Assembly (NCBI GenBank): GCA_964550955.1
Contig: CAZKAF010000001.1
Coordinates: forward strand, 632,126 to 696,125
Direction of reading: 5' to 3'
Source: an uncultured Candidatus Saccharibacteria bacterium
GTDB lineage: Bacteria; Patescibacteriota; Minisyncoccia; Phycocordibacterales; CAIZLB01
DNA length: 64,000 bases
Position 1 is the first letter of the stretch, and every line of letters begins with the position of its first letter. A program made the position numbers and the translations under genes. Under the pieces are notes generated by a model that saw only the letters and a program-made list of their open reading frames with translations, was not told where the DNA came from and did no database searches. Below, one piece after another: positions 2,515 through 51,927 of this stretch.

Positions 2515-2519
2515 ATGGC

Positions 2520-4864: not shown

Positions 4865-4943
4865 GCCTTCTTTGATGCCTGATCCCTATGCCCAATTATT
4901 ATCGCCGTGCCGTGACCGTCTTGATGATTTCGCGGAACCGCGG

Positions 4944-35694: not shown

Positions 35695-35720
35695 TCTGGT
35701 TGCTATACTGATTCTTAGTT

Positions 35721-36569
35721 ATGGCTATCGTGCTTCCTCATAAAAAAGTCTTGGTGCTTGCATCCATATGCGCGTCAATAATTTTGATCGTCTTCTCATT
35801 TCAGCTGTCAAAGGAAAGAAAGGCTGTGGCGGCAAGAACCGCGTTCAACAGCGGGCAGATAGTGGCAGGAGAAAGCGTCGAAAACACAATTGCGGACAAG
35901 CGCATTCTCGAAGCGCTGCAATCCGCCCAGCTTGAGGCGCTCAAGGCAACCTCGACAAACCCCTTCGCGCCGGTGCCGACAGACACGCTCAGCGAGAGGC
36001 TTTCCAAAGATGTTTTTTCCACGTTCATGAGATACAGCACCGACGACAGCATCGACCTGGATGCGGTCTCGCAAGACGCAATCAACAACATCAACACGAG
36101 CGATTTGCCGAAATACAGGTACACGATGGCCGATATCAATATTTTTGTCGCGAAAGACACGAACGATGTTAAAAGATACGGCGACCAATTTGCAAATCAA
36201 TACATAACGGGATTAAAGCCCGTAGGTGAAAACCCGAGCAGATATGCCGTTTTGAGCAACCTGGTGCCAATATACGCCGATACGGCACGAAGAATACTCA
36301 GCGTGCCCGTTCCGGACAAAGTCGCGACGATACATCTCCAGCTCGCAAATACGTTCCAGCTTCTCAGCGAGCTGCTGCCCATTGTCGAAAGCCAGCAGAA
36401 AGACCCTCTCAAGTCGCTGCTCGCGCTCAGCATGGTTCAGCAAACCATGGAACAGCAGGTGTCCTTATTCACAGACATGAAATTATTTCTAAATCAGAAT
36501 GGTATAATCTATTCCAGCGAAGAGATGGGCAGAATCTGGAACGGCGGAACGCCCAATCAGCAACAATGA
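35721..36569 (+). CDS. bitopic membrane protein, first gene of T4SS-like island (VirB8-like topology, speculative)
   Basis: 282 aa. An N-terminal TM (VLVLASICASIILIVFSF) followed by a ~250-aa extracytoplasmic domain. Preceded by the TTGCTATACT motif 10 nt before the ATG. Confidence 0.35.
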   Translation: MAIVLPHKKVLVLASICASIILIVFSFQLSKERKAVAARTAFNSGQIVAGESVENTIADKRILEALQSAQLEALKATSTNPFAPVPTDTLSERLSKDVFSTFMRYSTDDSIDLDAVSQDAINNINTSDLPKYRYTMADINIFVAKDTNDVKRYGDQFANQYITGLKPVGENPSRYAVLSNLVPIYADTARRILSVPVPDKVATIHLQLANTFQLLSELLPIVESQQKDPLKSLLALSMVQQTMEQQVSLFTDMKLFLNQNGIIYSSEEMGRIWNGGTPNQQQ

Positions 36570-37795
36570 AAATAGCATCAAAAAAAATAATTGCAGGTTT
36601 TCTCACTTTTGGCCTTTTTTTCAGCCCTTTTTTAACTCCTTATGCGCATGGGCAAGGCGGTGATGCGCCGGCAAATACAAATACTCAGACAACGTCCCAG
36701 CAAAGCACGAGCCAGCAGAGCGGGGTGACAACATTTGGCACCGTGCAGCCAGGACAAGGAACCGCGTATCAGGGCGGAGCCCAAGCGGGAGGAACGACCA
36801 TCAGCGCTTCGGGCATCGCGACAAACCTGGCAGGCTGCTCAGCCGGAGCATTGCTCGGGCAGCTTGTCTCATACGGCATAAGCAATCTCCTAAGCAGCCT
36901 GACGGACGAAGTCGCAAGCATGCTGGGCGACAAGGTGCCGACAGATGAAAAAGGACAGGTCACGAAAGACATCAACTCGAATACGACAGCAAACACCTCG
37001 GCAGAAACGGGGCAGCTCATCATGGGAGTGCCGATTGGCGCCAGCTTCAACTCAATCGCATGGTGCCTCATTAACGGGACAATCGAAGCAATAGCTGACG
37101 CCACGATCGCCTGGGCGAACAGCGGCTTTAACGGCAGTCCGGCATTTCTTGAGAATCCAGAATCATTCTTTCAGGAATTAGCGGATATCGAGGCCCAGAA
37201 CTTCATTTCAAGCCTTGCATACAACACGGCCGGCTACAATGTCTGCGAGCCATTCAGGATAGAGCTCTCCATAGGCTTGGCCGAAGCATACAGCGCCAAA
37301 AACGGAACGAACCGATTCAACAAGGTCGCAAGCTGCTCGATGGATCAAATGCAAGCCGCCCTCATGAGCAGCTCTGTAGGATATGGCGTGAGTGTCGGCG
37401 GCGGACCAGGAAAGAACCCTAAAAACCTTGATGGATACTGGACAGCATGGAACAACGTAAGAAGAGACGAAAACAATGTATGGGGATCTTGGATCATGGC
37501 CAACGATTTTCTTTACGGGCAAATTGAAAAGAAGGGAAATACTGCAAAGTTCGAAATCGGCCTCAACAACGGCTGGCTGAACTTTTCAAAATGCGAGAAC
37601 CAGGATGCTGCAAAGAAAGGGGATCGAAGCAGCTGCAAGACATACACGCCGGGCAGCCTCATCCAATCAACCCTCGAGCAGAATCTTAAAATACCCAAGG
37701 ACAGGCTCGTAGCAGCGCAGAAGTTTGACCAAGTAATCGAAGCCGTAGTCAACAACCTTATCAAGGTCGCGCTCAATAAGGTGCTCGAACGATAG
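36566..37795 (+). CDS. secreted Gly/Thr/Gln-rich protein with Cys-containing C-terminal domain
   Basis: Signal peptide MKIASKKIIAGFLTFGLFFSPFLTPYAHG, then a low-complexity T/Q/G region and a C-terminal domain with about 8 Cys. Start overlaps the previous stop by 4 nt. Confidence 0.4.
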   Translation: MKIASKKIIAGFLTFGLFFSPFLTPYAHGQGGDAPANTNTQTTSQQSTSQQSGVTTFGTVQPGQGTAYQGGAQAGGTTISASGIATNLAGCSAGALLGQLVSYGISNLLSSLTDEVASMLGDKVPTDEKGQVTKDINSNTTANTSAETGQLIMGVPIGASFNSIAWCLINGTIEAIADATIAWANSGFNGSPAFLENPESFFQELADIEAQNFISSLAYNTAGYNVCEPFRIELSIGLAEAYSAKNGTNRFNKVASCSMDQMQAALMSSSVGYGVSVGGGPGKNPKNLDGYWTAWNNVRRDENNVWGSWIMANDFLYGQIEKKGNTAKFEIGLNNGWLNFSKCENQDAAKKGDRSSCKTYTPGSLIQSTLEQNLKIPKDRLVAAQKFDQVIEAVVNNLIKVALNKVLER

Positions 37796-37955
37796 CAACG
37801 TCCGACATGAATGTTTACTTAAGCCCAGATTCGGGCAGAACCAGTCTGAAATTCATTAAATAAGACCGCTTGTACACATAGAGTATGGGCGATTTTATTT
37901 TATTTTAATGTATAATATGTGCATATATTTCCAGGGAACCTGGTTGTAAACTCAC

Positions 37956-40193
37956 ATGAGCTTTTTCACAAAAAAAATCAAGAGAATCGCGGCCTTGGGA
38001 TTCTTGCTGGTCGGCTTTGCGATTTTGAGCATGGGTATTTTCAACCCCACGACAGCCGCTGCAGCAACATTCACCCCGGGCGGCAATGAACAAACCGCAA
38101 TGATAGACGGCAAGCAGGTTAAGCTTCTAAACAAGAAGATCAGCGCCGCCCCGGTTTCATTGGGAAGCGGGCCGGATACCCAGACGCATTATTTATATCA
38201 GGACGAACAAGGCACTGTATACATAGTCGGGCTTGATAATTACACGGGCAATAAAAGGTATTCGGCCGGCATAGCTTCAGACAAGGACAAGCAGGCTTTT
38301 ACGAGCCCCTCGACCGGATTTTTTTCAACAGGCCAAGTAGTTACCGATGCTAACGGAAACGTTGTTGCCGCAGCCACGACCGCAACAGGCATAATGGATC
38401 CGAATGCGGCACCTGACAAGGCCGAGGCTTTCAGATGCGTTATATGGGACTGGACCGGAGGTACATGGAATGCCTGCGTAGGGCTTGCAGCATATACGTT
38501 TCTCGGATTCTGTTCATGGTTCGTATTTTTCGCCGCTATCGCATTCAATGCCTCGATTGACTACGGATTGAACATGGCAAATCTTATTAACGACATTCCG
38601 ATTGTTGAATTGGGCTGGACAACATTCAGAGACCTCACGAGCATATTCTTCGTCTTCATAATCCTCTACATAGCAATCAACACCATCATTGGAAATAGCT
38701 CGTACGGCGCAAAGGCATTGCTTGGCAAAGTCATAATAGGGGCCATTCTCATTAACTTTAGTCTCTTTTTCACGAAGGTGATTATCGACGCATCCAACAT
38801 CGTTGCCTTGCAATTTTATGCAAAGATAACGCTTGATGCCAAGCTCGGATCAGCAAACACAGGGAACAGCGGACAAAGAGTCGGCATTGATAACCCTACC
38901 AACCATTGGGATAGCGGCATATCCGCGCAGTTCGCAGACGCCATGGGCCTTCAAACGCTTTGGAACGGTCCGGATAAGAGCCAAACCTCGGGAGTTAAGA
39001 GCCTGGCATTGAACTCGAAGAATTTGACCATCGTAGGCGTAATGGGAGGAACTTTCCTGCTCATAACGGCGACTGTCTTCTTGGCCGGAGCTATCATGTT
39101 TCTAATACGAAGCATAGTCTTTATATTCTTAATGGTGCTCTCGCCTCTTGCATTCATGGGATCAATATTGCCTTCAACCAAAGGCTATACGAAAGTATGG
39201 TGGGATAAGCTTTTTGCAAACGCCATCTTTGCGCCTGTGTATATGATTTTCATGTATGCGATTCTTTCAATGGTCTTGACGGCGGGCAAACAAAAAGTAA
39301 ATTTTATAGACATGTTTAAGGAGAATGTCGATTTTACGCAGACATTCATAACTTACTTCGTGCTCAATGCGCTGATGCTCGCGTCGCTGTTAATAGCGAA
39401 CAAGCTCGGCGCGGAGGGAGCAGGGTGGGCAACAGGCATAGCTTCAAAAGCCACGTTCGGAACAGCGGGTTGGCTGGGCAGAAACACATTCGGAAACATT
39501 GCCGGCAGAATGGCTCAAAGCGAAAGTACTTTCTTTGGAAAAAATGCACAGACCGGCATCGGCAGAGGGCTCTACAGGACGCTCAGCGGAGTGTCGAACA
39601 GGAGCTTCGATTTCAGAAACCTGAATAGCAACATGAATAAGAAGTTCAATCTCGGGGCCGGCGCGGAGGGAGGCTACAGCAAAGACCTTGATAACGCAAT
39701 AAAAAGAAAGACCGCATATGCCGAAACGCTCGGCGCGGAGGGAAGGAGGGCATATGCATCCAGCCTGCACAACCGTTCTTGGCTGCATGGCAAAGGCGCA
39801 AAGAAGTCGGCAGAAAAAGCAATGGGCTCCAGCCTAGCTGAGGGAGAGAAGGAAATCTCAGAAATGATAACTGAAATCGATCAGGATCCTGATATCAAGA
39901 AGTACAACAAGTACATGGAGAAAGTTGCAGCAAACAAGGCGCTTGGAACTGAGGAGCAAGCTGAGTTCTTTGGAGGCATAAGCCCGACGAGAGGGCCGTT
40001 GCGAGGACTTAAATCAGAGGTGGAAAGCCGCGACGAGATTAAGTACAAGAGGTTCGACGAAAAGACTGGTTCATGGACTGGAAAAAATTCAAGAGGCGAT
40101 GATCTTAAGGCGAAGCCGGCTGACGCTCTCAAGGCGATGAAAGCAGAGCGAGCGAAAGCTCAGCAGTACAAGAGATCCAAGGCTTGGAAATAG
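37956..40193 (+). CDS. VirB6/TrbL-like polytopic membrane protein with long basic C-terminal tail
   Basis: 745 aa. N-terminal signal/TM, a ~150-aa external segment, at least 6 closely packed TM helices (aa ~170-480), and a ~260-aa K/E/A-rich cytoplasmic tail. Topology and island context match VirB6/PrgH/TcpH-type channel subunits; no sequence motif is known for this family. Confidence 0.4.
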   Translation: MSFFTKKIKRIAALGFLLVGFAILSMGIFNPTTAAAATFTPGGNEQTAMIDGKQVKLLNKKISAAPVSLGSGPDTQTHYLYQDEQGTVYIVGLDNYTGNKRYSAGIASDKDKQAFTSPSTGFFSTGQVVTDANGNVVAAATTATGIMDPNAAPDKAEAFRCVIWDWTGGTWNACVGLAAYTFLGFCSWFVFFAAIAFNASIDYGLNMANLINDIPIVELGWTTFRDLTSIFFVFIILYIAINTIIGNSSYGAKALLGKVIIGAILINFSLFFTKVIIDASNIVALQFYAKITLDAKLGSANTGNSGQRVGIDNPTNHWDSGISAQFADAMGLQTLWNGPDKSQTSGVKSLALNSKNLTIVGVMGGTFLLITATVFLAGAIMFLIRSIVFIFLMVLSPLAFMGSILPSTKGYTKVWWDKLFANAIFAPVYMIFMYAILSMVLTAGKQKVNFIDMFKENVDFTQTFITYFVLNALMLASLLIANKLGAEGAGWATGIASKATFGTAGWLGRNTFGNIAGRMAQSESTFFGKNAQTGIGRGLYRTLSGVSNRSFDFRNLNSNMNKKFNLGAGAEGGYSKDLDNAIKRKTAYAETLGAEGRRAYASSLHNRSWLHGKGAKKSAEKAMGSSLAEGEKEISEMITEIDQDPDIKKYNKYMEKVAANKALGTEEQAEFFGGISPTRGPLRGLKSEVESRDEIKYKRFDEKTGSWTGKNSRGDDLKAKPADALKAMKAERAKAQQYKRSKAWK

Positions 40194-40233
40194 TAGACAT
40201 TGGAATTTTGTATTACAATAGTCTCATAAGGAC

Positions 40234-41229
40234 ATGTCAAAAAATATGAATAGACCTGATATCGATCAATTGATGGAAGAAAAAATCGAATCGCTGCCTG
40301 GAACAGTGAGAGAGATTATATTTTCTGATGAAATTGGCGACAAGGTCGATTCTATCGGCAAGAATTACGATTTGACCGAAGACCAGCATGATTCGCTCAT
40401 TGAAGAAATCGGCTACGTCCTCTTCCGGGTCTCGTCGTTGGCGTCATTCAAGAGAAACCTGCAAGACAACGTGGGGCTGGTTCCAAGCAAGGCGCTGGCT
40501 ATAAGCACGGAACTATATGGTTCGATTTTCCAGCCGGTCAAGAAATTCCTCAAGGACGTCGACGAGCCTGAACAAGAAACGGTGTCCATTCCGGTAAAGC
40601 AGGCGGGCAGCGTTGCGCCGAGCAGCCAGCCGACGAGCCAGCAAGAAGCATACGTCGATACGGGGTCCCTGAGCCATCATGACATATTGAGCGAAATCGA
40701 GAATCCATCTTCTTCAGTATTTAAAAGCGAGTCAAGAAACGGCGCTCCGGCCGCGCAAGCTTCGGAATCAGACGCGTCATTGCTTCCGGAAGAATCGCTC
40801 GTGGAAATAGAAAGCGAGAGCGGAAAGGGGGCAGCGCAGGCGCTCGCATCTGTCATGCCGACTTCAACGGCGAACTCGACTCCGGCCGAGGCGCCGCGAA
40901 ACATGATGAGCACGGCCGCAACCATCGCGCAGCAAAGGATTAACCTGTCTGACAGCCAGATGTACAGCCGCATATCTCAAAACTCCATTCATCACGATAT
41001 CGTGCCGAACCTGAACGGATTCAAGCCGATTATCGTCGGCAACCAGGAACCCATAACCGGAGTTCATCTCAACACGCCTGTCACGGACCCCCTCGCGAAA
41101 GCTTCGGATACTGCCGACAAGCTCAATGGAGCGCTTTCCGGACCGGTCACGAACACGCCGACAGAGGTCTATGTCTCGCAGAAACCCCAAGCATTGAAAA
41201 TGGATCCGTACAGAGAGCCGATCGAATAA
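40234..41229 (+). CDS. hypothetical protein with N-terminal helical domain paralogous to 41300-41638 and S/A/P-rich tail
   Basis: Residues ~25-105 align with the downstream 112-aa protein (Y-L-x-x-DQ-x-SL ... V-x-F ... L-x-x-x-A-x-x-I ... P-x-x-x-F). The remainder is low complexity. Confidence 0.4.
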   Translation: MSKNMNRPDIDQLMEEKIESLPGTVREIIFSDEIGDKVDSIGKNYDLTEDQHDSLIEEIGYVLFRVSSLASFKRNLQDNVGLVPSKALAISTELYGSIFQPVKKFLKDVDEPEQETVSIPVKQAGSVAPSSQPTSQQEAYVDTGSLSHHDILSEIENPSSSVFKSESRNGAPAAQASESDASLLPEESLVEIESESGKGAAQALASVMPTSTANSTPAEAPRNMMSTAATIAQQRINLSDSQMYSRISQNSIHHDIVPNLNGFKPIIVGNQEPITGVHLNTPVTDPLAKASDTADKLNGALSGPVTNTPTEVYVSQKPQALKMDPYREPIE

Positions 41230-41299
41230 CAAAAAGGGTTACGCAGACTGTCTGAAGGATACCGATAGTTGAAGTTAAAAATTTGCTATACTATATCGC

Positions 41300-41638
41300 A
41301 TGACAAATTCCCTTGAACAGATGAGCGAGAAGTTCCAGCAATTGCCGGATGACGCGCAGATAGCCATCAGCCAGTTCGACTACGACAAGGCGCTTCGGGA
41401 CGTTCACATGAAATACAAGCTCCACATAGACCAGGCATCTTCGCTCGAAAAGGCGGTTGCAAGCGTTGTTTTCGGAGAGATACGGCCGCAGACCCTGATT
41501 CAGATCATCCAAAGCGAGCTCAGGCTTGATGCCGAGCTGTCGAAATCCATCGCGTTCGACATCAACCAGTCCATTCTCTTGCCGATACAGGAACTCATGC
41601 GAAACATACAGCGTGAAAACATGGAAAGTGCTGTATAA
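41300..41638 (+). CDS. hypothetical small helical protein (paralogue of the N-domain of 40234-41229)
   Basis: 112 aa. A TGCTATACT -10-like element ends 7 nt before the ATG (leaderless-type arrangement). Confidence 0.4.
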   Translation: MTNSLEQMSEKFQQLPDDAQIAISQFDYDKALRDVHMKYKLHIDQASSLEKAVASVVFGEIRPQTLIQIIQSELRLDAELSKSIAFDINQSILLPIQELMRNIQRENMESAV

Positions 41639-41641
41639 TAA

Positions 41642-42115
41642 ATGCAAATGAAGTATCAAGTACCGCAATTCATCGAGGTCGAGGACAAGATTTTCGGCCC
41701 GTTCACGTTCAGGCAGTTCGTCTACATGGTCGGATCGCTTGGCATTTGCTTCATCGCGTACAGGACGCTCCCTTTCATCCTTGCGCTGCTCATCATGATT
41801 CCGGCCGGAGGGATGGGAGCCGCCCTGGCTTTCTACAGGCCGAACAAGAGGCCGTTCATCGAAACGGTCGAGGCCGCGTTCAATTTCATGCTGACAAGCA
41901 AGCTGTATATTTGGAAAAAGGAAGAGAAGAAAGCGGAGCCGAAGTCCGCCGAAGACATCATCAAGGCCGCGAAATCTTCCATCGTCGTGCCCCGGCTATC
42001 CGAAAGCAAGCTGAAGGACCTGTCATGGAGCCTCGACATCAACGAGACGGTTTACTCGAGGGAAACCGGAAAGCTCGAGGGCAGAAGGGAAGCGCAATCA
42101 AAAAGCCCTTTTTAG
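41642..42115 (+). CDS. PrgI-family (VirB3-like) small membrane protein
   Basis: N-terminus QVPQFIEVEDKIFGPFTFRQFVYMVGSLGICFIAYRTLPFILALLIMIPAGGMGAALAF is two TM helices with the F-x-x-RQ-F pattern seen in PrgI-type proteins. Located immediately upstream of VirB4-like ORFs. Confidence 0.5.
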   Translation: MQMKYQVPQFIEVEDKIFGPFTFRQFVYMVGSLGICFIAYRTLPFILALLIMIPAGGMGAALAFYRPNKRPFIETVEAAFNFMLTSKLYIWKKEEKKAEPKSAEDIIKAAKSSIVVPRLSESKLKDLSWSLDINETVYSRETGKLEGRREAQSKSPF

Positions 42116-42206
42116 CGCGCTTCCGGTCGTTCCGGCAATCGTGTCGCGTTTTGAAATACTTGGTATATAATGACAGCAAGCAAAGCAGGATAGAACATCT
42201 AAATCT

Positions 42207-42842
42207 ATGGCAATCGACGCAAAACCAACACAAGCATTCGTTCCTATAAAAGAAATCCGAGACGGCGTCATGGTGCTCAAGGATGGAGGCATGCGAACGA
42301 TACTCCTTGCCTCATCATTGAACTTCGCGCTCAAGTCAGCCGACGAGCAGCAGTCGATCATCTTCCAATTTCAAAACTTCCTGAACTCCCTCAACTTCAG
42401 CGTCCAGATTTACACGCAGTCGCGAAGGCTTGATATACGGCCATACTTGGCCCTCATGGAAGAAAAGCTCAAGGATCAGACGGGCGACCTCATGAAAATG
42501 CAGACTCGGGAATACATCGAGTTCATCAGGAGCTTCACGGAGTCGAGCAGCATCATGACGAAGAGCTTTTTCATCGTCATTCCGTACAGCCCGCCCATCG
42601 CGAGCGGAGTAAACGCCGTAAAAAAAGGTTTTTTTGGAAACAAGTCCAATGTCAGCGATGAAAAATCCACGTTCGAGGAGAACAGGAGCCAGCTCCAGCA
42701 AAGAACCGAGGTGGTAGAGCAGGGCCTGGTGCGCTGCGGAATCAGAATCGCGGAACTGGGCACCGAAGAGCTCATCGAGCTCTTCTACAAGACATTCAAT
42801 CCGGGCGACGTGGAGAAGCCGATCAATCTTGGTAACAAATAA
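42207..42842 (+). CDS. VirB4/TrsE-family N-terminal domain encoded as a separate ORF
   Basis: VPIKEIRDGVMVLKDGGMRTILLASSLNFALKSADEQQSIIFQFQNFLNSLNFSVQIYTQSRRLD matches the characteristic N-terminal region of Gram-positive-type VirB4 ATPases (IPIKDIkdGii.tKDG.y.kIlEv.piNF.LkSeeEQ..ii..f..fL), recalled from family knowledge. The ORF ends 29 nt before, and in a different frame from, the ATPase ORF. Confidence 0.55.
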   Translation: MAIDAKPTQAFVPIKEIRDGVMVLKDGGMRTILLASSLNFALKSADEQQSIIFQFQNFLNSLNFSVQIYTQSRRLDIRPYLALMEEKLKDQTGDLMKMQTREYIEFIRSFTESSSIMTKSFFIVIPYSPPIASGVNAVKKGFFGNKSNVSDEKSTFEENRSQLQQRTEVVEQGLVRCGIRIAELGTEELIELFYKTFNPGDVEKPINLGNK

Positions 42843-42871
42843 TTTTTGGTGCTATACTTTGAGGGAATATT

Positions 42872-44911
42872 ATGGGACTTTTAGATTTTTTAGCGCCAAA
42901 AAAACAGCACGACAACCCGATTGCCTCCGTCCTTCCTCAGGAAATTTACCAATCAGGCGTCCTTGAACTGCAGGACATCATCGCCCCATCGGCCCTTAAG
43001 GTAAGCCCCAGAGCGCTGAACCTCGGAGACAAGCTCGTCCGAACTTTTTTCGTAATTTCATATCCTCGGTTCCTCTCCGAAAGCTGGTTCGCGCCGATCA
43101 TCAACCTCGACAAGATTTTCGACATCTCGATCTTCATTCACCCGATCGATACGGCTTCAGTGCTCCGAACATTCCAGAAGAAGGTGGCGGAAGTACAGAG
43201 CCAGATTCACCTTCGAGAAGAGAAGGGACTTGTTCGAGATCCTGTTCTCGATACCGCATACCAGGACCTCGAAACTCTTCGAGACAGCCTCCAGCAGGCG
43301 CAGGAAAAGATTTTCGATGTAGGACTGTATATCTCCATTTATGGCGAAAATGAAAATGACTTGGACAAGATAGAATCTGAAATCAAGTCTATTCTCGAAT
43401 CAAGCCTCGTATACCTGAAACCCGCCCTTTTCCAGCAGGAACAAGGGTACAAGAGCGTTTTGCCTATCGCGGACGATCAGCTTAAAATCCACTCGAAGCT
43501 CAACTCCTCGCCGCTTTCCAGCATTTTCCCCTTTATCTCATTCGACCTTACCTCGGACAAGGGCATCCTGTACGGCATCAACCGGCACAACTCAAGCCTT
43601 ATTCTTTTTGACAGATTCTCGCTTGAAAACTACAACTCGATCACGTTCGCCAAGTCAGGTTCCGGAAAGTCATACATGACGAAGCTTGAGATTCTCAGGT
43701 CAATGATGTTCGATACGGACGTCATCATTCTCGACCCGGAGCGAGAATACGAATACCTGGCCGAAGCTACGGGAGGCAGGTTTTTCAATATTTCCCTCAC
43801 GTCCGAGCACCATATCAACCCGTTCGATCTTCCGGTGCCGAGAGAGGATGAGTCAGGCGCCGACGTCCTTCGGTCAAACATCGTGAGCCTCGTGGGACTT
43901 TTCCGAATCATGCTCGGAGGCCTTACGCCGGAAGAAGATGCCATCGTGGACCGAGCCATCACCGAAACATACGCCCTCAAGGACATCACGCCGGAGTCAA
44001 ACTTTGCCGCCGTGGAGCCGCCGCTCATGTCGGATTTCGAGCTTGTGCTCGCAGGAATGGAAGGAGGGGAGTCTCTCGTGCAGAGGCTTACGAAGTACAC
44101 GAAGGGAACCTGGTCAGGATTCATCAACAGGCCCTCGAACGTGGACATCAACAAGAAGCTCGTGGTGTTCTCGCTTCGAGACATGGAAGACGAGCTCAAG
44201 CCGGTAGCGATGTACATCGTGATGCACTTCATCTGGAACCAAATCCGAAAGGAGCTCAAGAAGCGGCTGATGGTCATTGACGAGGCCTGGTACCTCATGA
44301 AATCCGAAGATACGGCTTCATTCTTGCTCGGCTTGGCAAAGCGAGGACGAAAATACTATCTCGGCCTGGCAACAATCACGCAAGACGTCGAGGACTTCCT
44401 CAAGTCTCCCTACGGCCTGCCCATCATCACCAACTCTTCCATCCAGATTCTTCTCAAGCAATCGCCGTCGTCAATCGATGTCGTTCAGAAAACCTTCAAC
44501 CTGACGGATGAAGAGAAGTATCTTCTTCTCGAATCAGATGTGGGGGAAGGCATATTCTTCGCCGGACTCAAGCATGTCGCCATCAAGGTTATCGCATCGT
44601 ATACGGAAGACCAGATCGTAACGTCTTCGCCGTCTCAAGTGCTCAACATGAAGAGGGCCCGGGCAGACCTCGCAAACAAAGGTCTTGTCGGATCCCAAGG
44701 CATCAATCAGGCATTGGATCAGGGCAATTCAACGAGCGCTTCAAGCGTCAATCCCATAAACACAAGCAATGCTGACGCTTCGCCGCAGCAAGGCCAGACC
44801 CCGTTCATAAATCTCATGAATTCCGCGGCGGCCAATCCGGAAGAAGCGCCGCTGGATACCGACTCCATCGTTCAGCCGGATTTCCTCAACAAAATCAACC
44901 AGCAGGGATAA
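42872..44911 (+). CDS. VirB4/TraC/TrsE-family type IV secretion ATPase (central and C-terminal domains)
   Basis: Walker A FAKSGSGKSYMTK, Walker B RLMVIDEAWYLM, and the VirB4 motif RKYYLGLATITQDVEDF. The upstream region (YPRFLSESWFAPIINL...) resembles the VirB4 middle domain. Confidence 0.8.
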   Translation: MGLLDFLAPKKQHDNPIASVLPQEIYQSGVLELQDIIAPSALKVSPRALNLGDKLVRTFFVISYPRFLSESWFAPIINLDKIFDISIFIHPIDTASVLRTFQKKVAEVQSQIHLREEKGLVRDPVLDTAYQDLETLRDSLQQAQEKIFDVGLYISIYGENENDLDKIESEIKSILESSLVYLKPALFQQEQGYKSVLPIADDQLKIHSKLNSSPLSSIFPFISFDLTSDKGILYGINRHNSSLILFDRFSLENYNSITFAKSGSGKSYMTKLEILRSMMFDTDVIILDPEREYEYLAEATGGRFFNISLTSEHHINPFDLPVPREDESGADVLRSNIVSLVGLFRIMLGGLTPEEDAIVDRAITETYALKDITPESNFAAVEPPLMSDFELVLAGMEGGESLVQRLTKYTKGTWSGFINRPSNVDINKKLVVFSLRDMEDELKPVAMYIVMHFIWNQIRKELKKRLMVIDEAWYLMKSEDTASFLLGLAKRGRKYYLGLATITQDVEDFLKSPYGLPIITNSSIQILLKQSPSSIDVVQKTFNLTDEEKYLLLESDVGEGIFFAGLKHVAIKVIASYTEDQIVTSSPSQVLNMKRARADLANKGLVGSQGINQALDQGNSTSASSVNPINTSNADASPQQGQTPFINLMNSAAANPEEAPLDTDSIVQPDFLNKINQQG

Positions 44912-45019
44912 CGGGACGGGACAAAAAAAAGAGATTTCAATAAACTTTCCGCTTAAGGGCGGCTGGCTTAGACAAGCTCTTATGTAGAAAAAGCAGAAGC
45001 AGGTGTATAATACTGGCAT

Positions 45020-45517
45020 ATGGACGAAGAAGTACAAGAAGATGACAGCCTTGAAAGCAGAAAAATGCGCATGCAGGCGTACTACAAGTCTGGACAAAGG
45101 GTCAGCAGAAGGGAGTTTTTAAGAAACGGCGGCTTGGGCGAGACAAGAAAGCAGCTTGGACTGGACAAGGCGGGCGAGAAAAAGAAGGGTGATTTTTCAA
45201 GAACCGACTTCTTTTTCATGATGGGCATTGCCGGCTTTTATGATTTGCTGTCAGCCTTGCTGAATCTCATACCCTTCATCGGCGGCGTTTTTTCATCGGT
45301 TTTGGTGACGCCCGTCGCGCTGCTCAATCTCTATATCATGTATTCAAAAAGAGGAATCTCATTCAAGTCCACGAAATCAGTGATGAAATTCGGAGGGGCC
45401 AGCCTGATAGAATTCATACCCGTGCTGAATTTCTTGCCCGGATTCATGCTGAACGTCGTCTTGAACTACCCGCCTCCGATAGTTAAGAACACGCTCAATA
45501 AGGCGAAAATAAATTAG
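45020..45517 (+). CDS. small integral membrane protein (2-3 TM), possible pilin-like or VirB2-like subunit
   Basis: 165 aa with a hydrophilic N-terminus and then hydrophobic helices (FFFMMGIAGFYDLLSALLNLIPFIGGVFSSVLVTPVALLNLYIM). A TATAAT -10 element ends ~8 nt before the ATG. Confidence 0.35.
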   Translation: MDEEVQEDDSLESRKMRMQAYYKSGQRVSRREFLRNGGLGETRKQLGLDKAGEKKKGDFSRTDFFFMMGIAGFYDLLSALLNLIPFIGGVFSSVLVTPVALLNLYIMYSKRGISFKSTKSVMKFGGASLIEFIPVLNFLPGFMLNVVLNYPPPIVKNTLNKAKIN

Positions 45518-45535
45518 TTTTGATATACTGTACGC

Positions 45536-46651
45536 ATGTCACGGTTCTCATTCAAAAGAACAACTGCGCAGGCGCTGCTTCTTGGCTTGCTGGCAAGCGC
45601 AGCATACGTTTCACCGGCAAAGATAGGCAATGTCGCAAGCGCCCAAATAACCCCGAACTTTTCTGACACGGAAATGACCGCGGACAGCGCCCCGATGTCT
45701 TCAGTCATGCCCAATCAGCTCTCCATCGACGTGTATCCGGAATCGCCGATGCCGAACGACACCGTAACCATAACCGCGCGAACCTTCGGCATAGATACCA
45801 ATACGAATACGTATACCTGGATCGTGAACGGAAGGGAAGTCCTGAGAGGCGTCGGGCAGAACAGGTTCGCCTTTACCGTCGGAATCACGGGCACCGTCAC
45901 GAACGTGAAGCTCTATATTGATCCGGTCGACGGAAAGCGCATAGAGCGCGACTTCACGTACACGCCCCTCGACGTGGACATTCTTTGGCAGGCAAATACG
46001 TATACGCCTCCTTTCTATAAAGGAAAAGCCCTCTACACGCCTGAGTCCGAAGTAACTTTCACGTCGCTTCCCAACATTGTCGTGAACGGAGCGAGAATCA
46101 ATCCGTCCGATGTCGTATACAGATGGAAAGTAGGCTACAAGCTGCAAGATGAGCAGTCGGGATTCGGCAAGAACAGCTTTACATACAAGGGCACGATCAT
46201 CCTTCGAGAAGACCTGATCCAATCGGAGGTGTACAGCGCCCGCAATCCGACAGTCAAGGGCATCAACGGATATACGCTCAATCACGTGAACCCGCAGATT
46301 TTGACCTATGAAGACCATCCGCTGCTCGGAGTTCTCTTCAACAGAAATATTTCAGGCGAATACTATCTCAACCAGCAGGAGGTCAAGCTGGCCACATTTC
46401 CGCTGTTCTTCAGCGCGGAAAACAAGAACAGCGCGGTCACATACAAATGGGATTTGAACGATGGGCAAATTGACATACCTCAAAACCAAAATTCCGCCGT
46501 ATTTCGAAGGAACAACAACACGGCAGGAGCCTCATTCGTGGGCCTGACTGTCGGAAACCCTTCTCATATTCTCCAAAGGGCGCAGGCCGGCATCTCGGTG
46601 ATATACGAAGATGCGAGAACGGCGACGGCAATTCCGTTTGGCTCAAACTAA
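45536..46651 (+). CDS. secreted beta-rich surface protein, hypothetical
   Basis: Signal peptide MSRFSFKRTTAQALLLGLLASAAYVSPAKIG, then a T/V/N/Y-rich sequence suggestive of Ig-like beta domains. A TTGATATACTGTAC motif ends 2 nt before the ATG. Confidence 0.4.
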   Translation: MSRFSFKRTTAQALLLGLLASAAYVSPAKIGNVASAQITPNFSDTEMTADSAPMSSVMPNQLSIDVYPESPMPNDTVTITARTFGIDTNTNTYTWIVNGREVLRGVGQNRFAFTVGITGTVTNVKLYIDPVDGKRIERDFTYTPLDVDILWQANTYTPPFYKGKALYTPESEVTFTSLPNIVVNGARINPSDVVYRWKVGYKLQDEQSGFGKNSFTYKGTIILREDLIQSEVYSARNPTVKGINGYTLNHVNPQILTYEDHPLLGVLFNRNISGEYYLNQQEVKLATFPLFFSAENKNSAVTYKWDLNDGQIDIPQNQNSAVFRRNNNTAGASFVGLTVGNPSHILQRAQAGISVIYEDARTATAIPFGSN

Positions 46652-46672
46652 TTACAAGGTTACAATTAGCCC

Positions 46673-48169
46673 ATGCATAAATTTGCCTGCTCCATACTGC
46701 TCGGATTAATTTTCTGCTTGGCGCTTGGAACTCACATAGCTTCCGCTCAGACTGCCGAAGAGTTCGCGACCATAAGCGCCGGCATCAGGCTCAACGACAG
46801 CAGCAAGAAAACGAATACCATGCGGCAAATAGAGCAAGGCTTGCTTGAAATCAGCAATCTCAGAGGGGCCTTATACGAAAAGGGGGTGCAGGCCATCGAA
46901 GTGGCAAAATATGAAGAATCCCTTTTGAACAGCTTAAGGACAGTGGCTCAGGCAACGCATAGGCAAGAAAACATGAGCGTCATTTGGGATATATTTTCTC
47001 AGAACCAAATAAACAGCAATTTCGTGCAGTCGCTTGCGAACTTTCAAAACACGGTCGCCAACATATACATTCAAAACGGCATAGAAGACCAGGGGCAAAA
47101 TTATAAAGACGGAGCGGCGGCGCAAGCGGCACTAGCAAGCCAAGTGCAGCAAGGCAATTATCCGCAACCAGTACGAGATAGCGCCGTGAATCTCGAACCC
47201 TCCGGCACCGTCGGGTCGTCGAAGCCGGCAGCCACCACCTGCACCTGGAAGGCGGGCTCCGGGCCGGACGCCGGGAAGTACTGCCTCCTGGCGCCGCTCG
47301 GGGACCTCCTCGGGGGCGAGAGCGGCAGGATAGACATCGTCAACGGGGGCATGGCGGCGTACCTCGAGGGCATGTTCAGGGCGGGAATCGCCATCGCGAC
47401 GGGGCTGACCCTCATCATGATCGTGATCGGGGGGCTTCAGTACGTGTCCACCGACGCGTGGGGAGGCAAGAGCGAGGGAAAGGAGAAGATTACCCAGGCG
47501 CTCCTCGGGCTGCTCCTGGCCCTCGGGACCGTGCTCATCGTCCAGGAGCTCAACCCGACGCTCCTGCGGAGGGACCTGGACCTGAACGAGAAGATAACGC
47601 TGCAGAGGATCAGCGGGCCGAATGTCGAGAATCTAGGCGGTGATTTGCAGTACGTCCCCGATAGCGGGGTCTTGCAGAACTCGGTGAACCTTATAGATCC
47701 GGCGCGAATAGGCATAACAGGAAACCCGAACCTGAACGTGGCCGGCCGCATCGTCGAATCCGCAAGAAAGAACATCGGATTCGACACATGCCTTGTCGTG
47801 ACCGAAAACGGCAGAAAAGGCTGCGGATACGCGTTTGGAAAAATAATGAAAGACGCGGGGGTGGATATCGGCCTGTCAGACACCGCGGTTCTCGGAACTC
47901 GCGCAATTTACAATGCGCTGGCAAGCAGCAATAAGTTCTACCTGGTACCAGGAGGGCTGTTTACGTCCGTAGCAGGAGACATCGTCATATCCCCGACGGG
48001 AGAAAAGTCAGGTCATGTCGGAATAGTCGAGACAATGGCCGGATCATCCATCATCTCGAACAGCAGCGCAGCCGGCGAAGTCTCTCGAAACTGGACAGCG
48101 ACAAGATGGATCAGCTATTACGAGGGAACGCAGGGATTGAAAACGTATGTCTTCAGGGCAAAGATATAA
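46673..48169 (+). CDS. VirB1-like cell-wall hydrolase: signal peptide + two-helix hydrophobic module + C-terminal CHAP/NlpC-P60-like cysteine peptidase domain
   Basis: N-terminal signal peptide. Central module ...AGIAIATGLTLIMIVIGGLQYV...ITQALLGLLLALGTVLIVQEL. C-terminus contains Cys in DTCLVVTENGRKGCGYAFG and His in SGHVGIVE, consistent with a CHAP-type Cys-His hydrolase. Confidence 0.55.
   Translation: MHKFACSILLGLIFCLALGTHIASAQTAEEFATISAGIRLNDSSKKTNTMRQIEQGLLEISNLRGALYEKGVQAIEVAKYEESLLNSLRTVAQATHRQENMSVIWDIFSQNQINSNFVQSLANFQNTVANIYIQNGIEDQGQNYKDGAAAQAALASQVQQGNYPQPVRDSAVNLEPSGTVGSSKPAATTCTWKAGSGPDAGKYCLLAPLGDLLGGESGRIDIVNGGMAAYLEGMFRAGIAIATGLTLIMIVIGGLQYVSTDAWGGKSEGKEKITQALLGLLLALGTVLIVQELNPTLLRRDLDLNEKITLQRISGPNVENLGGDLQYVPDSGVLQNSVNLIDPARIGITGNPNLNVAGRIVESARKNIGFDTCLVVTENGRKGCGYAFGKIMKDAGVDIGLSDTAVLGTRAIYNALASSNKFYLVPGGLFTSVAGDIVISPTGEKSGHVGIVETMAGSSIISNSSAAGEVSRNWTATRWISYYEGTQGLKTYVFRAKI
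47228..47628. repeat. copy 1 of a 401-bp perfect direct repeat (GC-rich) shared with 48676-49076
   Basis: Sequence from gcagccaccacctgcacctgg... to ...gatcagcgggccgaatgtcga is identical in both genes, and the spurious antisense ORFs in the two copies translate identically. Strongly GC3-rich, unlike the flanks. Confidence 0.85.
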
Positions 48170-48246
48170 GGACACCGGTCCAATCTGTTAATCAGACTGT
48201 TAACAGACAGCAAGTGTACAGCTTTGTTTTTGATATACTATGAAAT

Positions 48247-49602
48247 GTGAATAAAGTTTTCTTAAAAATTGCCAAGCCCCTCCTTTGTCTGATTCTTTGC
48301 CTAACATTCATATTCCCGTTCTTCGCGAGCGCGGCCATCGGCGGCAATTTTAATGATCTGACGACAGGAACATACACGGCGACCATAGAAAACTATCCTG
48401 CGCCCGGCCAAAAACAGAGTTTTGACCTTGTCTTGATAGCTGATTATAACGGCCGGATATATGTCGACGAGGAGAAGTCAAAAATACCGGTAAAAGACAC
48501 GTATGACGAGCTGTTGCCCAGAGAATTAACCTATCTAGGACCGAACGGATCGAGCATGACCATCGACCTCATGTCGAGGCAGAAAGTAGGAGACGGGGTA
48601 ACAGGAGAAATCAAAAGCGATGGGCAAGGAAACACATTATCTCCAGCAATCGTGGCGACAAAGTCTGAAACCAAAGCAGCCACCACCTGCACCTGGAAGG
48701 CGGGCTCCGGGCCGGACGCCGGGAAGTACTGCCTCCTGGCGCCGCTCGGGGACCTCCTCGGGGGCGAGAGCGGCAGGATAGACATCGTCAACGGGGGCAT
48801 GGCGGCGTACCTCGAGGGCATGTTCAGGGCGGGAATCGCCATCGCGACGGGGCTGACCCTCATCATGATCGTGATCGGGGGGCTTCAGTACGTGTCCACC
48901 GACGCGTGGGGAGGCAAGAGCGAGGGAAAGGAGAAGATTACCCAGGCGCTCCTCGGGCTGCTCCTGGCCCTCGGGACCGTGCTCATCGTCCAGGAGCTCA
49001 ACCCGACGCTCCTGCGGAGGGACCTGGACCTGAACGAGAAGATAACGCTGCAGAGGATCAGCGGGCCGAATGTCGATTCTCTCGGAATCGACATAAGCCA
49101 ATACCCGACAGTAGATAACATCGTAAACAACGCTACGAATTATAACTATCAAGTGACAGGTACGACGAAGTTCGCCTTGAGCGACTTCTCGAACATGGAA
49201 TGGAGAGCATACGCCCTCAATCAGATAAACAACACGAGGCTGCCTTCCATGAAACCCATTGACGCTGACAAATTTTTTCCAGGCGGAGTGGTAACAGCCG
49301 AGGGATGGCTTAAAATAGTGGCCGGGATAGTGAAACTTGAGTCCAGCTTCAACCCGAGACTTGTCTTTCCTGAACCGCCTCCATTGAACAAGAACTCGGT
49401 TGGACTGATGCAATTATCTTATGATGATGCCGAGGTTAGGGCGCGAGGATATTCGGAAGAAGACTTGAAGAATCCATTAAAAAATCTTGAGGCCGGCATA
49501 AAGATACTCGAGAGGCAGCTCATAAGGCACGGCTGCATATCCTGCAAGTCGGCAGAAGGGTCATGGAGAGGCGGAGCCCAATACTGGTCTACCTTAAGAT
49601 AA
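48247..49602 (+). CDS. VirB1-like cell-wall hydrolase: same two-helix module + C-terminal lytic transglycosylase (SLT) domain
   Basis: GTG start directly after TTGATATACT. C-terminus has SLT motifs: catalytic E-S (IVKLESSFNPRLV), GLMQLSY and LEAGIKIL. Central module is identical to that of 46673-48169. Confidence 0.6.
   Translation: MNKVFLKIAKPLLCLILCLTFIFPFFASAAIGGNFNDLTTGTYTATIENYPAPGQKQSFDLVLIADYNGRIYVDEEKSKIPVKDTYDELLPRELTYLGPNGSSMTIDLMSRQKVGDGVTGEIKSDGQGNTLSPAIVATKSETKAATTCTWKAGSGPDAGKYCLLAPLGDLLGGESGRIDIVNGGMAAYLEGMFRAGIAIATGLTLIMIVIGGLQYVSTDAWGGKSEGKEKITQALLGLLLALGTVLIVQELNPTLLRRDLDLNEKITLQRISGPNVDSLGIDISQYPTVDNIVNNATNYNYQVTGTTKFALSDFSNMEWRAYALNQINNTRLPSMKPIDADKFFPGGVVTAEGWLKIVAGIVKLESSFNPRLVFPEPPPLNKNSVGLMQLSYDDAEVRARGYSEEDLKNPLKNLEAGIKILERQLIRHGCISCKSAEGSWRGGAQYWSTLR
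48676..49076. repeat. copy 2 of the 401-bp perfect direct repeat
   Basis: See copy 1; offset 1448 bp. Confidence 0.85.
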
Positions 49603-49708
49603 GGGGGTTTTCAATTTTTAAGTTTTAAGACGGCGCGGAAGCCGCGCATAAAAATCACGATTAGCCCTGTCTACAAGTGAAAAATATTTGATATACTGTA
49701 CCTAACGC

Positions 49709-51106
49709 ATGAACAGGAAAACCGCTTTCATTATTATCGTGGTGGCGCTCAGTCTCATCATCGGCGGCCTCATCGGCTTTTATTTTTATACCATAAGAAA
49801 TAATCCGACGGCCACTTTCTTCGGAAGGGACATCTCCGGAAGAAACTTCGCCAACTACGATCCTTCAAGCCCGAATACCGGAACCTCGACCGCGACGCAG
49901 GACACTCCGGTCATAGTCGGAACAAGCACGTCTCCGCAGGACATGCCAAGGCTCAGGAAAATAAGCGACAATCCGGTAGCCGGTTTCAGCTTTGTAAATA
50001 AGGACATTATCGCAACGAGCACGAGAAACATCGAGCCGCCGGACCTTTCCCAGACCGGAGGAAGACCTGTGGCAACGCCGGCGCCTCGGGTTATCGGAAA
50101 TGTTGAAGTCATCAGATACATCGAGAGAGCCACTGGACACATATTTGAAACGAGCACGTCGACGCCCATAACGACTCGTATCTCAAATACGACTATCCCC
50201 AAGATATACGAGGCCTTGTTCGCAGAAAGAGGAGATTCGCTTATCTTGAGAGACTTGATAGGCTCAACGGACATCATAAGAACGCAGTATGCATCATTGG
50301 TACGTTCCACTACGACAAACTCGGAGGAACTCGAAACTGTAACAAAAGACCTGACCGTCAATTTGCTCCAAGCAGTCTTGTCTCCGACTAAAAACCAGCT
50401 GTTCTCCATTCAAAAGGAAGGCGTTACGGGTTTCCTGTCGACGCCTGACGGAGGGGGAATACAGACCGTATTGGACATACCTTTCAAGGAATGGCTTGTT
50501 CAGTGGCCGGAAAGAAGGGCTATCGTACTGACAACAAAGCCGTCAGGTTTCTTCCCTGGCTACGCATATGTTCTAAACCCTGAAAACAGGTCATTTACGA
50601 GAATCCTGGGAAATATAAACGGTCTTACCACAAGCATGTCTCCTCAGGACACGAATAAGCTCATATACAGCAGAAGCGACGCGGGAACATTCAGCCTATG
50701 GGCTTTTGACAGAAGAACAAGCGAATCAACAAACCTGCAGGTCAGGACGCTGCCTGAGAAGTGCGTGTGGGCCAACACGGAAGCTGACACCATTTACTGC
50801 GCGATTCCGGACGACATCGCATTCAATACGTATCCCGATGTCTGGTATCAAGGAAGGATAACGTTCTCTGACAGCATCTGGAAAATCAACATATCAACAA
50901 GAGAAGCACGGCTCATATCAAGGCCTCAATCAGAGGTTTCGGAAATAATCGACGTGGAGAAAATAGAAATCAATCCAAAGGACGATTACCTTCTCCTCAC
51001 GAACAAGATCAACTACGATTTATGGGGACTAAGACTGGTCGAGCCAGCCAGACCGCCCGCAAACCCGTTGGATTCAATAGGAACATCGACCCCGAGCGAG
51101 ACTTAG
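49709..51106 (+). CDS. membrane-anchored Thr/Ser-rich extracytoplasmic protein, hypothetical (last gene of island)
   Basis: N-terminal TM FIIIVVALSLIIGGLIGFYFY, then a 440-aa T/S-rich domain with a beta-propeller-like feel. A TTGATATACTGTAC motif lies 12 nt upstream. Confidence 0.4.
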   Translation: MNRKTAFIIIVVALSLIIGGLIGFYFYTIRNNPTATFFGRDISGRNFANYDPSSPNTGTSTATQDTPVIVGTSTSPQDMPRLRKISDNPVAGFSFVNKDIIATSTRNIEPPDLSQTGGRPVATPAPRVIGNVEVIRYIERATGHIFETSTSTPITTRISNTTIPKIYEALFAERGDSLILRDLIGSTDIIRTQYASLVRSTTTNSEELETVTKDLTVNLLQAVLSPTKNQLFSIQKEGVTGFLSTPDGGGIQTVLDIPFKEWLVQWPERRAIVLTTKPSGFFPGYAYVLNPENRSFTRILGNINGLTTSMSPQDTNKLIYSRSDAGTFSLWAFDRRTSESTNLQVRTLPEKCVWANTEADTIYCAIPDDIAFNTYPDVWYQGRITFSDSIWKINISTREARLISRPQSEVSEIIDVEKIEINPKDDYLLLTNKINYDLWGLRLVEPARPPANPLDSIGTSTPSET

Positions 51107-51192: not shown

Positions 51193-51927
51193 TTATAAGA
51201 CCTTTTTAAGCGTCTTCCTGAAGTAGAGTTCCTGACCGATAGTAAACAAGCTTCCAGTAATCCAGTACAAAGCCACGGCGCCAGACACTGTTAAGCAGAT
51301 CACGAACATTATGACCGGCATCACATATCTCATCTGCATGTTCATGTTTCGAGCCAGCTCTTCGGAAAAATCCCTTTCCCCCATCTTTTTCTTTTCGCTG
51401 CCTTCTTTCGGCTTATAAGCAGGGACAGAAAGCCTTATCTGCACGAACTGTGCGGCGCCGGCGAGAACGCCGAGCACGACGCTTACCTTGGTAATGTCAA
51501 TGAGGCCGAGAAAGAGGGTGTTTATCGAGCTTGGAATCTTGACGAATGAATAAAGCAATTCGGCATTTATTTCCGGAAAACCCCCTCTTGAGAAGATAAA
51601 GAACAGTCCGAGAATGATGGGAATCTGAATGAGCAGCAGGAAAAAGCTGGCAAAAGGGTTCAAGTTGTTCTTTTTATAGAAATCGAGAGTCTTTCGGGCA
51701 AATTCCTCTTTGTTTGCGCCGTATTTCTTCTTAAGCTCGGCCAACTCCGGCTCCAAAGCCTTCATGATGATTTGAGTTTTGGTGGCCTGCTTGGATAAGG
51801 GGAAGAGGATGAGCTTCACGATACAAGTGAGCGCGATCGTGGCCAGACCAAGGTCTCCGCCAGGAATATAATCAAGAAGAAGAACCAGACCGTTATATAA
51901 TGGGTTGTAGATGAGTGTTGCAAACAT
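51193..51927 (-). CDS. yidC: membrane protein insertase YidC/Oxa1 (short form)
   Basis: 244 aa and 5 TM. The N-terminal MFATLIYNPLYNGLVLL... and the conserved helix pattern match short-form YidC. Sits in the rnpA-yidC operon. Confidence 0.85.
   Translation of the reverse strand: MFATLIYNPLYNGLVLLLDYIPGGDLGLATIALTCIVKLILFPLSKQATKTQIIMKALEPELAELKKKYGANKEEFARKTLDFYKKNNLNPFASFFLLLIQIPIILGLFFIFSRGGFPEINAELLYSFVKIPSSINTLFLGLIDITKVSVVLGVLAGAAQFVQIRLSVPAYKPKEGSEKKKMGERDFSEELARNMNMQMRYVMPVIMFVICLTVSGAVALYWITGSLFTIGQELYFRKTLKKVL

Follow-up and report, generated by a model that had tools for sequence, protein, structure and literature searches.

A cluster of 13 genes (g1 to g13) in a 64,000-nucleotide stretch of DNA from an uncultured Candidatus Saccharibacteria bacterium (the whole stretch is called the window below) encodes a type IV secretion system (T4SS). 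It is near certain that this is the chromosomal, vertically inherited T4SS of the Patescibacteria clade, descended from the MPF-FATA (mating pair formation) conjugation machines of monoderm bacteria, and that the present version is that of Paceibacteria/Parcubacteria-type genomes, beside the replication origin (oriC). The preliminary description of this DNA had proposed a chromosomal, non-conjugative MPF-FATA-style apparatus in a genome of the candidate phyla radiation, which is borne out by the match to the published Patescibacteria T4SS. The system is thus already known: the absence of relaxases and the dnaA/ksgA/rnpA neighborhood are in print, and the locus adds no new system. The new detail, relative to the published system, is that pilin domains are fused to cell-wall-cutting enzymes. 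The best explanation of the locus overall is a host-contact pilus-assembly machine, not conjugation, and we give it an even chance of being correct.

Layout, conservation and core components of the locus

The 13 open reading frames (ORFs) are all on the forward strand and fill positions 35721-51106, so that the described layout, 13 genes in the same direction between ksgA and yidC, was recovered unchanged. On the 5' side the cluster is preceded by UvrD (32557-34656) and KsgA (34663-35694). On the 3' side it is followed by YidC (51193-51927), RnpA (51933-52271) and L34 (rpmH, 52308-52466), all on the reverse strand, and beyond L34 by DnaA (52541-53875) and DnaN. The dnaA-dnaN spacer contains six DnaA-box-like sites (53903-54139), comprising one exact TTATCCACA and five sites with one mismatch, and is a probable oriC, located about 2.8 kb from the end of the cluster.

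A VirB4 scan with one genome per species was carried out, and the best 80 of more than 572 relatives (L001-L080) were used. The order UvrD-KsgA-g1...g13-YidC-RnpA-DnaA-DnaN was collinear in 77 of these 80 related species-level genomes, and the three exceptions are cross-matches of g4 and g5, which both strike the same ORF in the relatives. Conservation was expressed as the median identity to the window protein in the 42 loci with full flanks. VirB4 (g8) is more conserved than DnaA (81% versus 57%), with DnaN at 48% and YidC at 44%, and g1, g2, g3, g10 and g13 are at 24-31%. The extracellular parts of the apparatus have 24-37% identity, and the cytoplasmic and membrane motor is far more conserved.

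Families were searched in the 13 cluster genes and in 35 other ORFs of the window (nearly all of at least 158 amino acids). No relaxase, type IV coupling protein (T4CP) or transposase was found among them, and no second VirB4-like or T4CP-like ATPase is present in any frame of the 64-kb window. No direct repeats flank the cluster, no compositional break occurs across it apart from a GC-rich pilin repeat, and all cluster ORFs are intact. The sole recombinase in the window is a Xer-type tyrosine recombinase (22231-23184, reverse strand), about 12.5 kb from the cluster. It scored 222.9 bits against the XerA model (cut-off 220) and aligned over its full length with XerC and XerD, and is a chromosome-dimer resolvase rather than the integrase of an integrative and conjugative element (ICE).

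A genomic island or ICE was rejected on the grounds of the synteny, the VirB4 conservation, the lack of repeats and the assignment of the sole recombinase to the Xer type. The term island in the preliminary description is therefore replaced by that of a vertically inherited core locus, given its collinearity and the absence of flanking repeats. The accompanying statement that no relaxase, VirD4, integrase or transposase is present held over the 64 kb, in which the Xer-type enzyme is the one recombinase and no complete ICE was found.

VirB4 is encoded by g8 (42872-44911, forward), an ATPase of the MPF-FATA (CD1110) type that scored above the cut-offs of both NF045971 (CD1110 family, 362.9 bits, cut-off 325) and PF19044 (91.2 bits, cut-off 25.8). 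Its Walker A (AKSGSGKS) and Walker B (LMVIDE) motifs are intact, and its identity is 76-91% across the best 80 relatives. The earlier VirB4 call is confirmed with one correction, namely that the N-terminus is a separate gene, g7 (42207-42842, forward). This TrsD-like protein resembles a detached VirB4 N-terminal domain, aligning to positions 2-114 of NF045971 and 103-233 of NF045975; its match to TrsD/TraD (NF041427, E = 1.7e-4, 21.5 bits) is below the 200-bit cut-off, and the precomputed annotation is PF26593, TraC-like. In 73 of 76 related loci g7 is an ORF of its own with 206-228 amino acids, and its median identity is 63%. VirB4 is therefore a two-gene pair, consisting of TrsD-like g7 and the ATPase g8. 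A frameshifted VirB4 as the origin of g7 and g8 was rejected, since the split is kept and all three relative frames occur among the relatives. One related locus has a g7 ORF of 829 amino acids, apparently a fusion of g7 and VirB4 that represents the ancestral arrangement.

The PrgI/VirB3 call likewise stands, since the membrane protein g6 (41642-42115, forward) scored 40.7 bits against PF12666, above the curated cut-off of 27; it is present in 42 of 42 full-flank loci with a median identity of 50%. The VirB6-like call was upheld in part. The membrane protein g3 (37956-40193, forward) is polytopic, with several transmembrane segments and a long charged C-terminal tail, and is present in all 42 full-flank loci. 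By itself g3 matches no Pfam or other family, and 8 of its 37 syntenic orthologues match TrbL/VirB6 (PF04610, best 1.9e-7), with no other family recurring.

These components agree with published surveys. In Patescibacteria, VirB4 forms a monophyletic clade related to MPF-FATA (Quinonero-Coronel 2025 Microb Genom, PMC12102498), and TrsD, PrgI, VirB6 and VirB2-like genes lie near virB4, with relaxases nearly absent. According to the same survey, dnaA, dnaN, rnpA, ksgA and rpmH are enriched around virB4, above all in Paceibacteria, where VirB1 homologues are also associated with virB4, and T4CP homologues are often unlinked to virB4 (PMC12102498). The Saccharibacterium S. epibionticum cannot grow epibiotically without its T4SS (SEML1_0006-0019), pilins included; this system is similar to the conjugative systems of Gram-positive bacteria, lacks recognizable coupling and relaxase proteins, and was suggested to maybe 'export proteins' (Wang 2023 Cell, PMC10633639).

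The present locus resembles that of S. epibionticum ML1 in its MPF-FATA-type VirB4 next to a TrsD-like gene, PrgI, a candidate VirB6, PF18895 pilin domains and hydrolases beside virB4, in lacking a relaxase and T4CP, and in lying near dnaA. It differs in that S. epibionticum has six free pilins of 103-185 amino acids and a separate lysozyme gene, whereas here the module occurs only fused to hydrolases; an NTF2-like protein is annotated in S. epibionticum, and none was recognized in the present locus. Because the architecture differs in this way, the class of the organism matters. Close relatives (VirB4 identity of at least 74%) are labeled Paceibacterota, Parcubacteria, Taylorbacteria, Kaiserbacteria and, for many metagenome-assembled genomes, 'uncultured Candidatus Saccharibacteria', and these labels cannot all be right. 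The GC content of the window is 49%, well above that of the nearest relatives, the L001- and L002-type loci (about 38%).

Comparison with the monoderm MPF-FATA systems (CTn2/CD1110, pCF10 Prg/Pcf and pGO1/pSK41 Trs) shows that the locus shares with them a CD1110-family VirB4, PrgI, and SLT and CHAP-like hydrolases, and with pGO1 also the TrsD-like detached VirB4 N-domain. Unlike these conjugative systems, it lacks within 64 kb a relaxase, T4CP, oriT-associated genes and adhesin, contains VirB2-like pilin domains, and is chromosomally fixed, not mobile. It keeps the same functional set as the T-pilus subset of the Gram-negative VirB/D4 system (VirB2, VirB3, VirB4, VirB6 and VirB1), but has no outer-membrane core (VirB7/9/10), VirB5 or VirB11, has a pilin with large flanking domains, and belongs to a monoderm envelope.

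Pilin modules within two hydrolase genes

Two adjacent genes on the forward strand, g11 (46673-48169) and g12 (48247-49602), each encode a signal peptide, a variable N-domain, a VirB2-like pilin module and a peptidoglycan hydrolase domain. In g11, where the module spans amino acids about 186-319 and was assigned by PF18895 family evidence, the C-domain is a papain-fold (CHAP/NlpC-P60-like) cysteine hydrolase according to profile search. In g12, an identical module, located by a six-frame match, precedes an SLT lytic transglycosylase domain (PF01464, 37 bits, cut-off 21.3) with the ES and GLMQ motifs present.

The preliminary description had counted two VirB1-like hydrolases, with SLT and CHAP domains. 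The SLT assignment is secure by the family cut-off, and the CHAP assignment is not, since g11 scored 19.5-20.8 bits against Pfam CHAP (PF05257), below the cut-off of 26. A profile of the g11 C-domain matched the endolysin Lys2972 (8tw1, E = 3.2e-5), with the Cys and His aligned, and next NlpC/P60 enzymes, with MepS/Spr at about 0.05; both residues are unchanged in six orthologues. The C-domain of g11 is thus probably a papain-fold cell-wall hydrolase, an assignment supported at the superfamily level. The predicted topology of g11 and g12 is compatible with hydrolase domains outside the cytoplasm.

The module consists of a Cys-containing lead-in followed by a two-helix hairpin, and is encoded by a 401-nucleotide block shared by both genes. 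The family T4SS_pilin (PF18895) was matched by 50 of 60 syntenic homologues of the module, and by 91 of the 120 nearest cluster representatives (best 3.1e-15); a few also match TrbC/VirB2. No further copies of the module were found in the window in a six-frame search, and the 64 kb contain no free pilin. These matches place the VirB2-like pilin of this locus in the module within both hydrolase genes, and not in the small protein g9.

This layout prevails in the sub-family to which the module belongs. At least 100 amino acids follow the module in 131 of the 159 nearest representatives, and fewer than 30, as in a pilin-sized protein, in 12 of 159. Where a domain after the module could be recognized in the 120 representatives scanned, it was nearly always a peptidoglycan enzyme: SLT in 17 members, 3D in 4, NlpC/P60, CHAP, YkuD types and Peptidase M15 types in 3 each, and Amidase_5 and phage lysozyme in 1 each. 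Among the 80 related loci, these extensions are hypervariable. PrgK (pCF10), TraG (pIP501) and TcpG also hold SLT and CHAP-type domains at the membrane within a T4SS locus; there, both domains are in one protein behind a plain N-terminal transmembrane segment, whereas here each enzyme stands behind a two-helix pilin module, and across the module family the enzyme partner varies (SLT, 3D, NlpC/P60, CHAP, YkuD, M15).

The two copies of the block (47228-47628 in g11 and 48676-49076 in g12, both forward) are 100% identical over 401 nucleotides, with sharp borders. Their GC content is 66.8%, and 93% at third codon positions (GC3), the highest among all 400-nucleotide coding stretches of the window, in which the GC3 of the 50 genes ranges from 0.38 to 0.75. 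Five genomes, the window and the relatives L001, L005, L011 and L013, contain two or more module genes. Within each of the five, the DNA identity of the modules is 82-100% (93-100% for the closest copies), and between genomes it is 46-60%. The window, L001 and L005 nevertheless have orthologous CHAP-like and SLT C-domains, so that the duplication must be old and the module is being homogenized by gene conversion.

The module is thus under concerted evolution, with gene conversion equalizing its copies. Such homogeneity fits a need of the copies to co-assemble or to fit one machine. Recent duplication as the source of the identical block was rejected because of the orthologous CHAP-like and SLT partners. 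General GC-biased gene conversion as the cause of the 93% GC3 was not supported, since the other four genomes show no rise; the GC-rich tract may stem from a module acquired from a GC-richer relative, or from extreme selection on codons. Neither the module-hydrolase fusion nor the homogenization of the module was found described in the literature searched.

Favored reading and alternatives

A pilus-assembly or host-contact machine is favored because the locus keeps a VirB2/3/4/6/1-like set without a coupling protein. In A. tumefaciens, VirD4 is not needed for the T-pilus to form, and VirB2 is dislocated from the membrane by VirB4. By analogy, the kept set, comprising VirB3/PrgI (g6), VirB4 (g7 and g8), a candidate VirB6 (g3), the VirB2-like module and the hydrolases, would correspond to the subset that in model Gram-negative systems is enough to build a pilus with no coupling protein. 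Also in favor of this reading are the high conservation of the cytoplasmic and membrane motor, the 82-100% identity of paralogous modules within five genomes, the strong extended -10 motifs before six of the genes, the essential T4SS of S. epibionticum (PMC10633639), and the reported tubular structures that enter the host in a cultivated member of the phylum (bioRxiv 10.64898/2026.06.21.733656).

We suggest that Sec exports g11 and g12, which would enter the membrane as two-helix hairpins and keep the domains on either side of the hairpin outside it. Docked on PrgI and VirB6, VirB4 would then draw the pilin modules out of the membrane and polymerize them, forming a filament or conduit at the surface, and the fused SLT and papain-fold domains, either attached or cleaved, would open the cell's own and/or the host's peptidoglycan at the contact site. 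The fast-evolving secreted or bitopic proteins g1, g2, g10 and g13 may make up the part that is extracellular and specific to the host. The apparatus would be used for attaching to the host or penetrating it, possibly with macromolecule exchange, and not for conjugation.

Several observations weigh against this reading. The module alone matches PF18895 at E = 0.053 with just 14 bits, which is sub-threshold, and its profile matches no solved VirB2 structure among PDB sequences. The AlphaFold2 model of g11 is poor (17 sequences, pLDDT 59), and a Foldseek comparison of this model with the PDB gave nothing with E below 0.9. A domain of 190-230 amino acids at each end of the pilin may make VirB2-type helical packing hard unless it is cleaved. 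No VirB8-like protein was recognized in the cluster, with g1 and g13 giving no VirB8 (NTF2-fold) sequence signal, and these genes have not been linked to any filament. In addition, the source contig could carry a T4CP or free pilins beyond the 64-kb window.

A more specific form of the reading is an 'armed' modular pilin, in which a VirB2-like polymerization module bears exchangeable heads that cut peptidoglycan (SLT, papain-fold, 3D, YkuD, M15 and others). We regard this as speculative and rather doubtful. If it is true, gene conversion would keep the module identical among paralogues, so that different enzymes could co-assemble in one filament drilling through the host wall. This would be an enzymatically active conjugative-type pilus, of which no description was found in the literature searched.

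Among the alternatives, the locus might encode an effector translocator, through which proteins (the hydrolases or unlinked effectors) are injected or released at the host without a coupling protein, as by Bordetella Ptl and Brucella VirB. Protein-secreting T4SSs without T4CP exist (PMC12102498; PMC12857230), Wang 2023 suggested protein export (PMC10633639), and the peptidoglycan hydrolase domains are similar to antibacterial effectors. Neither an effector candidate nor a secretion signal was identified, however, and the hydrolases, with their Sec signal peptides and membrane hairpins, need no T4SS channel for exit. We consider this explanation unlikely as a whole, and it overlaps with host-contact pilus assembly rather than excluding it.

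The hairpin might also be a mere membrane anchor, the PF18895-like module tethering VirB1-type hydrolases at the channel, as the N-terminal transmembrane segment does in PrgK and TraG, with no pilus formed. This would agree with monoderm conjugative T4SSs, which are generally without pili and use membrane-anchored SLT/CHAP hydrolases (PMC12102498), and with the lack of a free pilin in 64 kb and the large domains on either side of the module. An anchor would not be expected to show 82-100% paralogue identity in five lineages amid diverging surroundings, and the same module family includes the free, essential pilins of S. epibionticum as well as the minority of pilin-sized members (12 of 159). 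We thus judge a simple anchor to be somewhat less probable still than an effector translocator.

A nucleic-acid import conduit of the ComB or Ced type, by which host DNA or RNA would feed a nucleotide-auxotrophic symbiont, is a candidate role proposed in the literature (PMC11665869). Tubular structures that enter the host have been reported in a cultivated member of the phylum, together with uptake of host RNA (bioRxiv 10.64898/2026.06.21.733656), and the tubule-T4SS link is explicitly tentative in that publication. Like H. pylori ComB and archaeal Ced, which act in uptake, the present system is driven by a VirB4-family ATPase and lacks a relaxase. Unlike in those systems, no ComB8-10 or Ced membrane partners were recognized among the cluster proteins, the similarity of g8 to the CedB model (NF041017) is weak (40.5 bits, cut-off 700), and the locus showed no recognizable DNA- or RNA-binding component. 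Classical competence is provided for separately in the window, by type IV pilus genes and ComM. On balance, we find an import conduit improbable.

An ordinary conjugative element or its remnant, that is, an ICE-type module with its relaxase, T4CP and integrase elsewhere or decayed, is very improbable and is the only alternative clearly disfavored by the present data, since the VirB4 score for a conjugal-transfer ATPase family and the frequent unlinked T4CP homologues in Patescibacteria (PMC12102498) are outweighed by the collinear position between the same housekeeping genes, a VirB4 that outdoes DnaA in conservation, the intact ORFs without flanking repeats or compositional break save the pilin repeat, the Xer identity of the distant recombinase, and the occurrence of relaxases in 103 Patescibacteria genomes only, versus 2,474 virB4 genes detected (PMC12102498).

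Other genes and implications

Several secreted or bitopic proteins had been described in the cluster, and this is corroborated by g1 and g13, which are bitopic, and by g2 and g10, which have signal peptides. All of the following genes are on the forward strand. The protein g1 (35721-36569) has an N-terminal transmembrane segment (residues 2-31) and about 250 amino acids outside, with no family match and no PDB profile match. It is fast-evolving, with two database homologues, and was detected in 18 of the 42 loci with full flanks, with an identity of about 24%. The protein g2 (36566-37795) is a secreted, Cys-rich helical protein with 130 homologues, in which the Cys residues and a W..GF.G.P motif are conserved. 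Its AlphaFold2 model is poor (85-sequence alignment, pLDDT 60); Foldseek against the PDB gave nothing with E below 0.9, and there was no PDB profile match. Four g2 homologues (P0092, P0097, P0101 and P0109; 567-647 amino acids) are fused to SLT, and through these fusions the g2 family may also be linked to cell-wall work.

The secreted protein g10 (45536-46651) has weak Ig/PKD-like repeats, with sub-threshold PKD/Ig/GldM matches and a weak match to Hoc Ig domains (E = 0.03). PDB-sequence profile searches gave nothing meaningful for g3 and g10. The protein g13 (49709-51106) has an N-terminal transmembrane segment (residues 1-30) and, outside, a possible TolB-like beta-propeller, its profile giving weak TolB matches (E = 0.008-0.04). 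Both g10 and g13 are present in 42 of 42 loci.

Two cytoplasmic proteins are weak paralogues. The acidic protein g4 (40234-41229) has no transmembrane segment and no family match, and its N-terminal 110 amino acids match the small protein g5 (41300-41638) by BLASTP (E = 5e-4 over 103 amino acids).

The membrane protein g9 (45020-45517) is small, with two to three transmembrane segments (66-108 and 129-148) and a cytoplasmic N-terminus. It had been put forward as a small candidate pilin with two transmembrane segments, and was rejected in this role, as it lacks a signal peptide and has no pilin match at E up to 10; the pilin module sits in g11 and g12. At its position in the virB4-g10 gap, 53 of 68 related loci have an ORF of at least 60 amino acids, and 52 of these 53 have at least one hydrophobic segment, mostly two to three. 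A D.L..L.LIP..G-type motif recurs in many of 30 sequences from this position. The protein g9 is probably a conserved, fast-evolving membrane component of the T4SS.

An extended -10 motif, TGNTATACT, occurs eight times in the window (6783, 23195, 35701, 41284, 42850, 45521, 48231 and 49689) versus 0.55 expected, and six of the eight copies lie 12-20 nucleotides upstream of start codons of T4SS genes. A motif scan found TGCTATACT before g1 (35701-35709, 11 nucleotides upstream of the ATG), g5 (41284-41292) and virB4 (g8; 42850-42858, within the g7-g8 spacer), and TGATATACT before g10 (45521-45529), g12 (48231-48239) and g13 (49689-49697), all promoter-like and on the forward strand. No Shine-Dalgarno-like GGAG, GAGG or AGGA was found within 20 nucleotides of the 50 gene starts of the window. 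These patterns suggest leaderless or very short-leader mRNAs, and a promoter of its own for most cluster genes. The extended -10 motif is found before virB4 in 15 of 69 relatives and is not conserved in most. The Xer-type gene carries its own TGGTATACT motif.

The rest of the window contains housekeeping genes, type IV pilus genes and ComM, the latter two as reported previously, and an Rfam search of the window gave four tRNAs only. The type IV pilus genes lie at both window ends (148-6728 and 61840-63747, reverse strand), and include two PilB-like ATPases (4944-6728 and 61840-63747), PilC (3650-4864) and an N-methyl pseudopilin (1972-2514) with two pilin-looking neighbors. A 604-amino-acid protein at the same end (148-1962, reverse) has an N-terminal hydrophobic segment and no family match. 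Just upstream of uvrD is a 957-amino-acid ORF (29290-32163, forward), rich in charged residues, with a TTG start (the true start is uncertain) and no Pfam/NCBIfam match. A 393-amino-acid ORF (24616-25797) has one central transmembrane segment and no family assigned.

Before that of the Patescibacteria, no T4SS had been shown to be essential for the bacterium carrying it, and a 2025 review described the Patescibacteria systems as unique among monoderm T4SSs by their essentiality and potential pili (PMC12857230). The locus described here shows the machine as a core, origin-proximal trait with an ATPase more conserved than DnaA, and the pilin domain and wall hydrolase in one polypeptide, with a module in concerted evolution, provide concrete experimental handles. 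Knowledge of its role would help to explain how a very large and mostly uncultured share of bacterial diversity lives at the expense of other cells.

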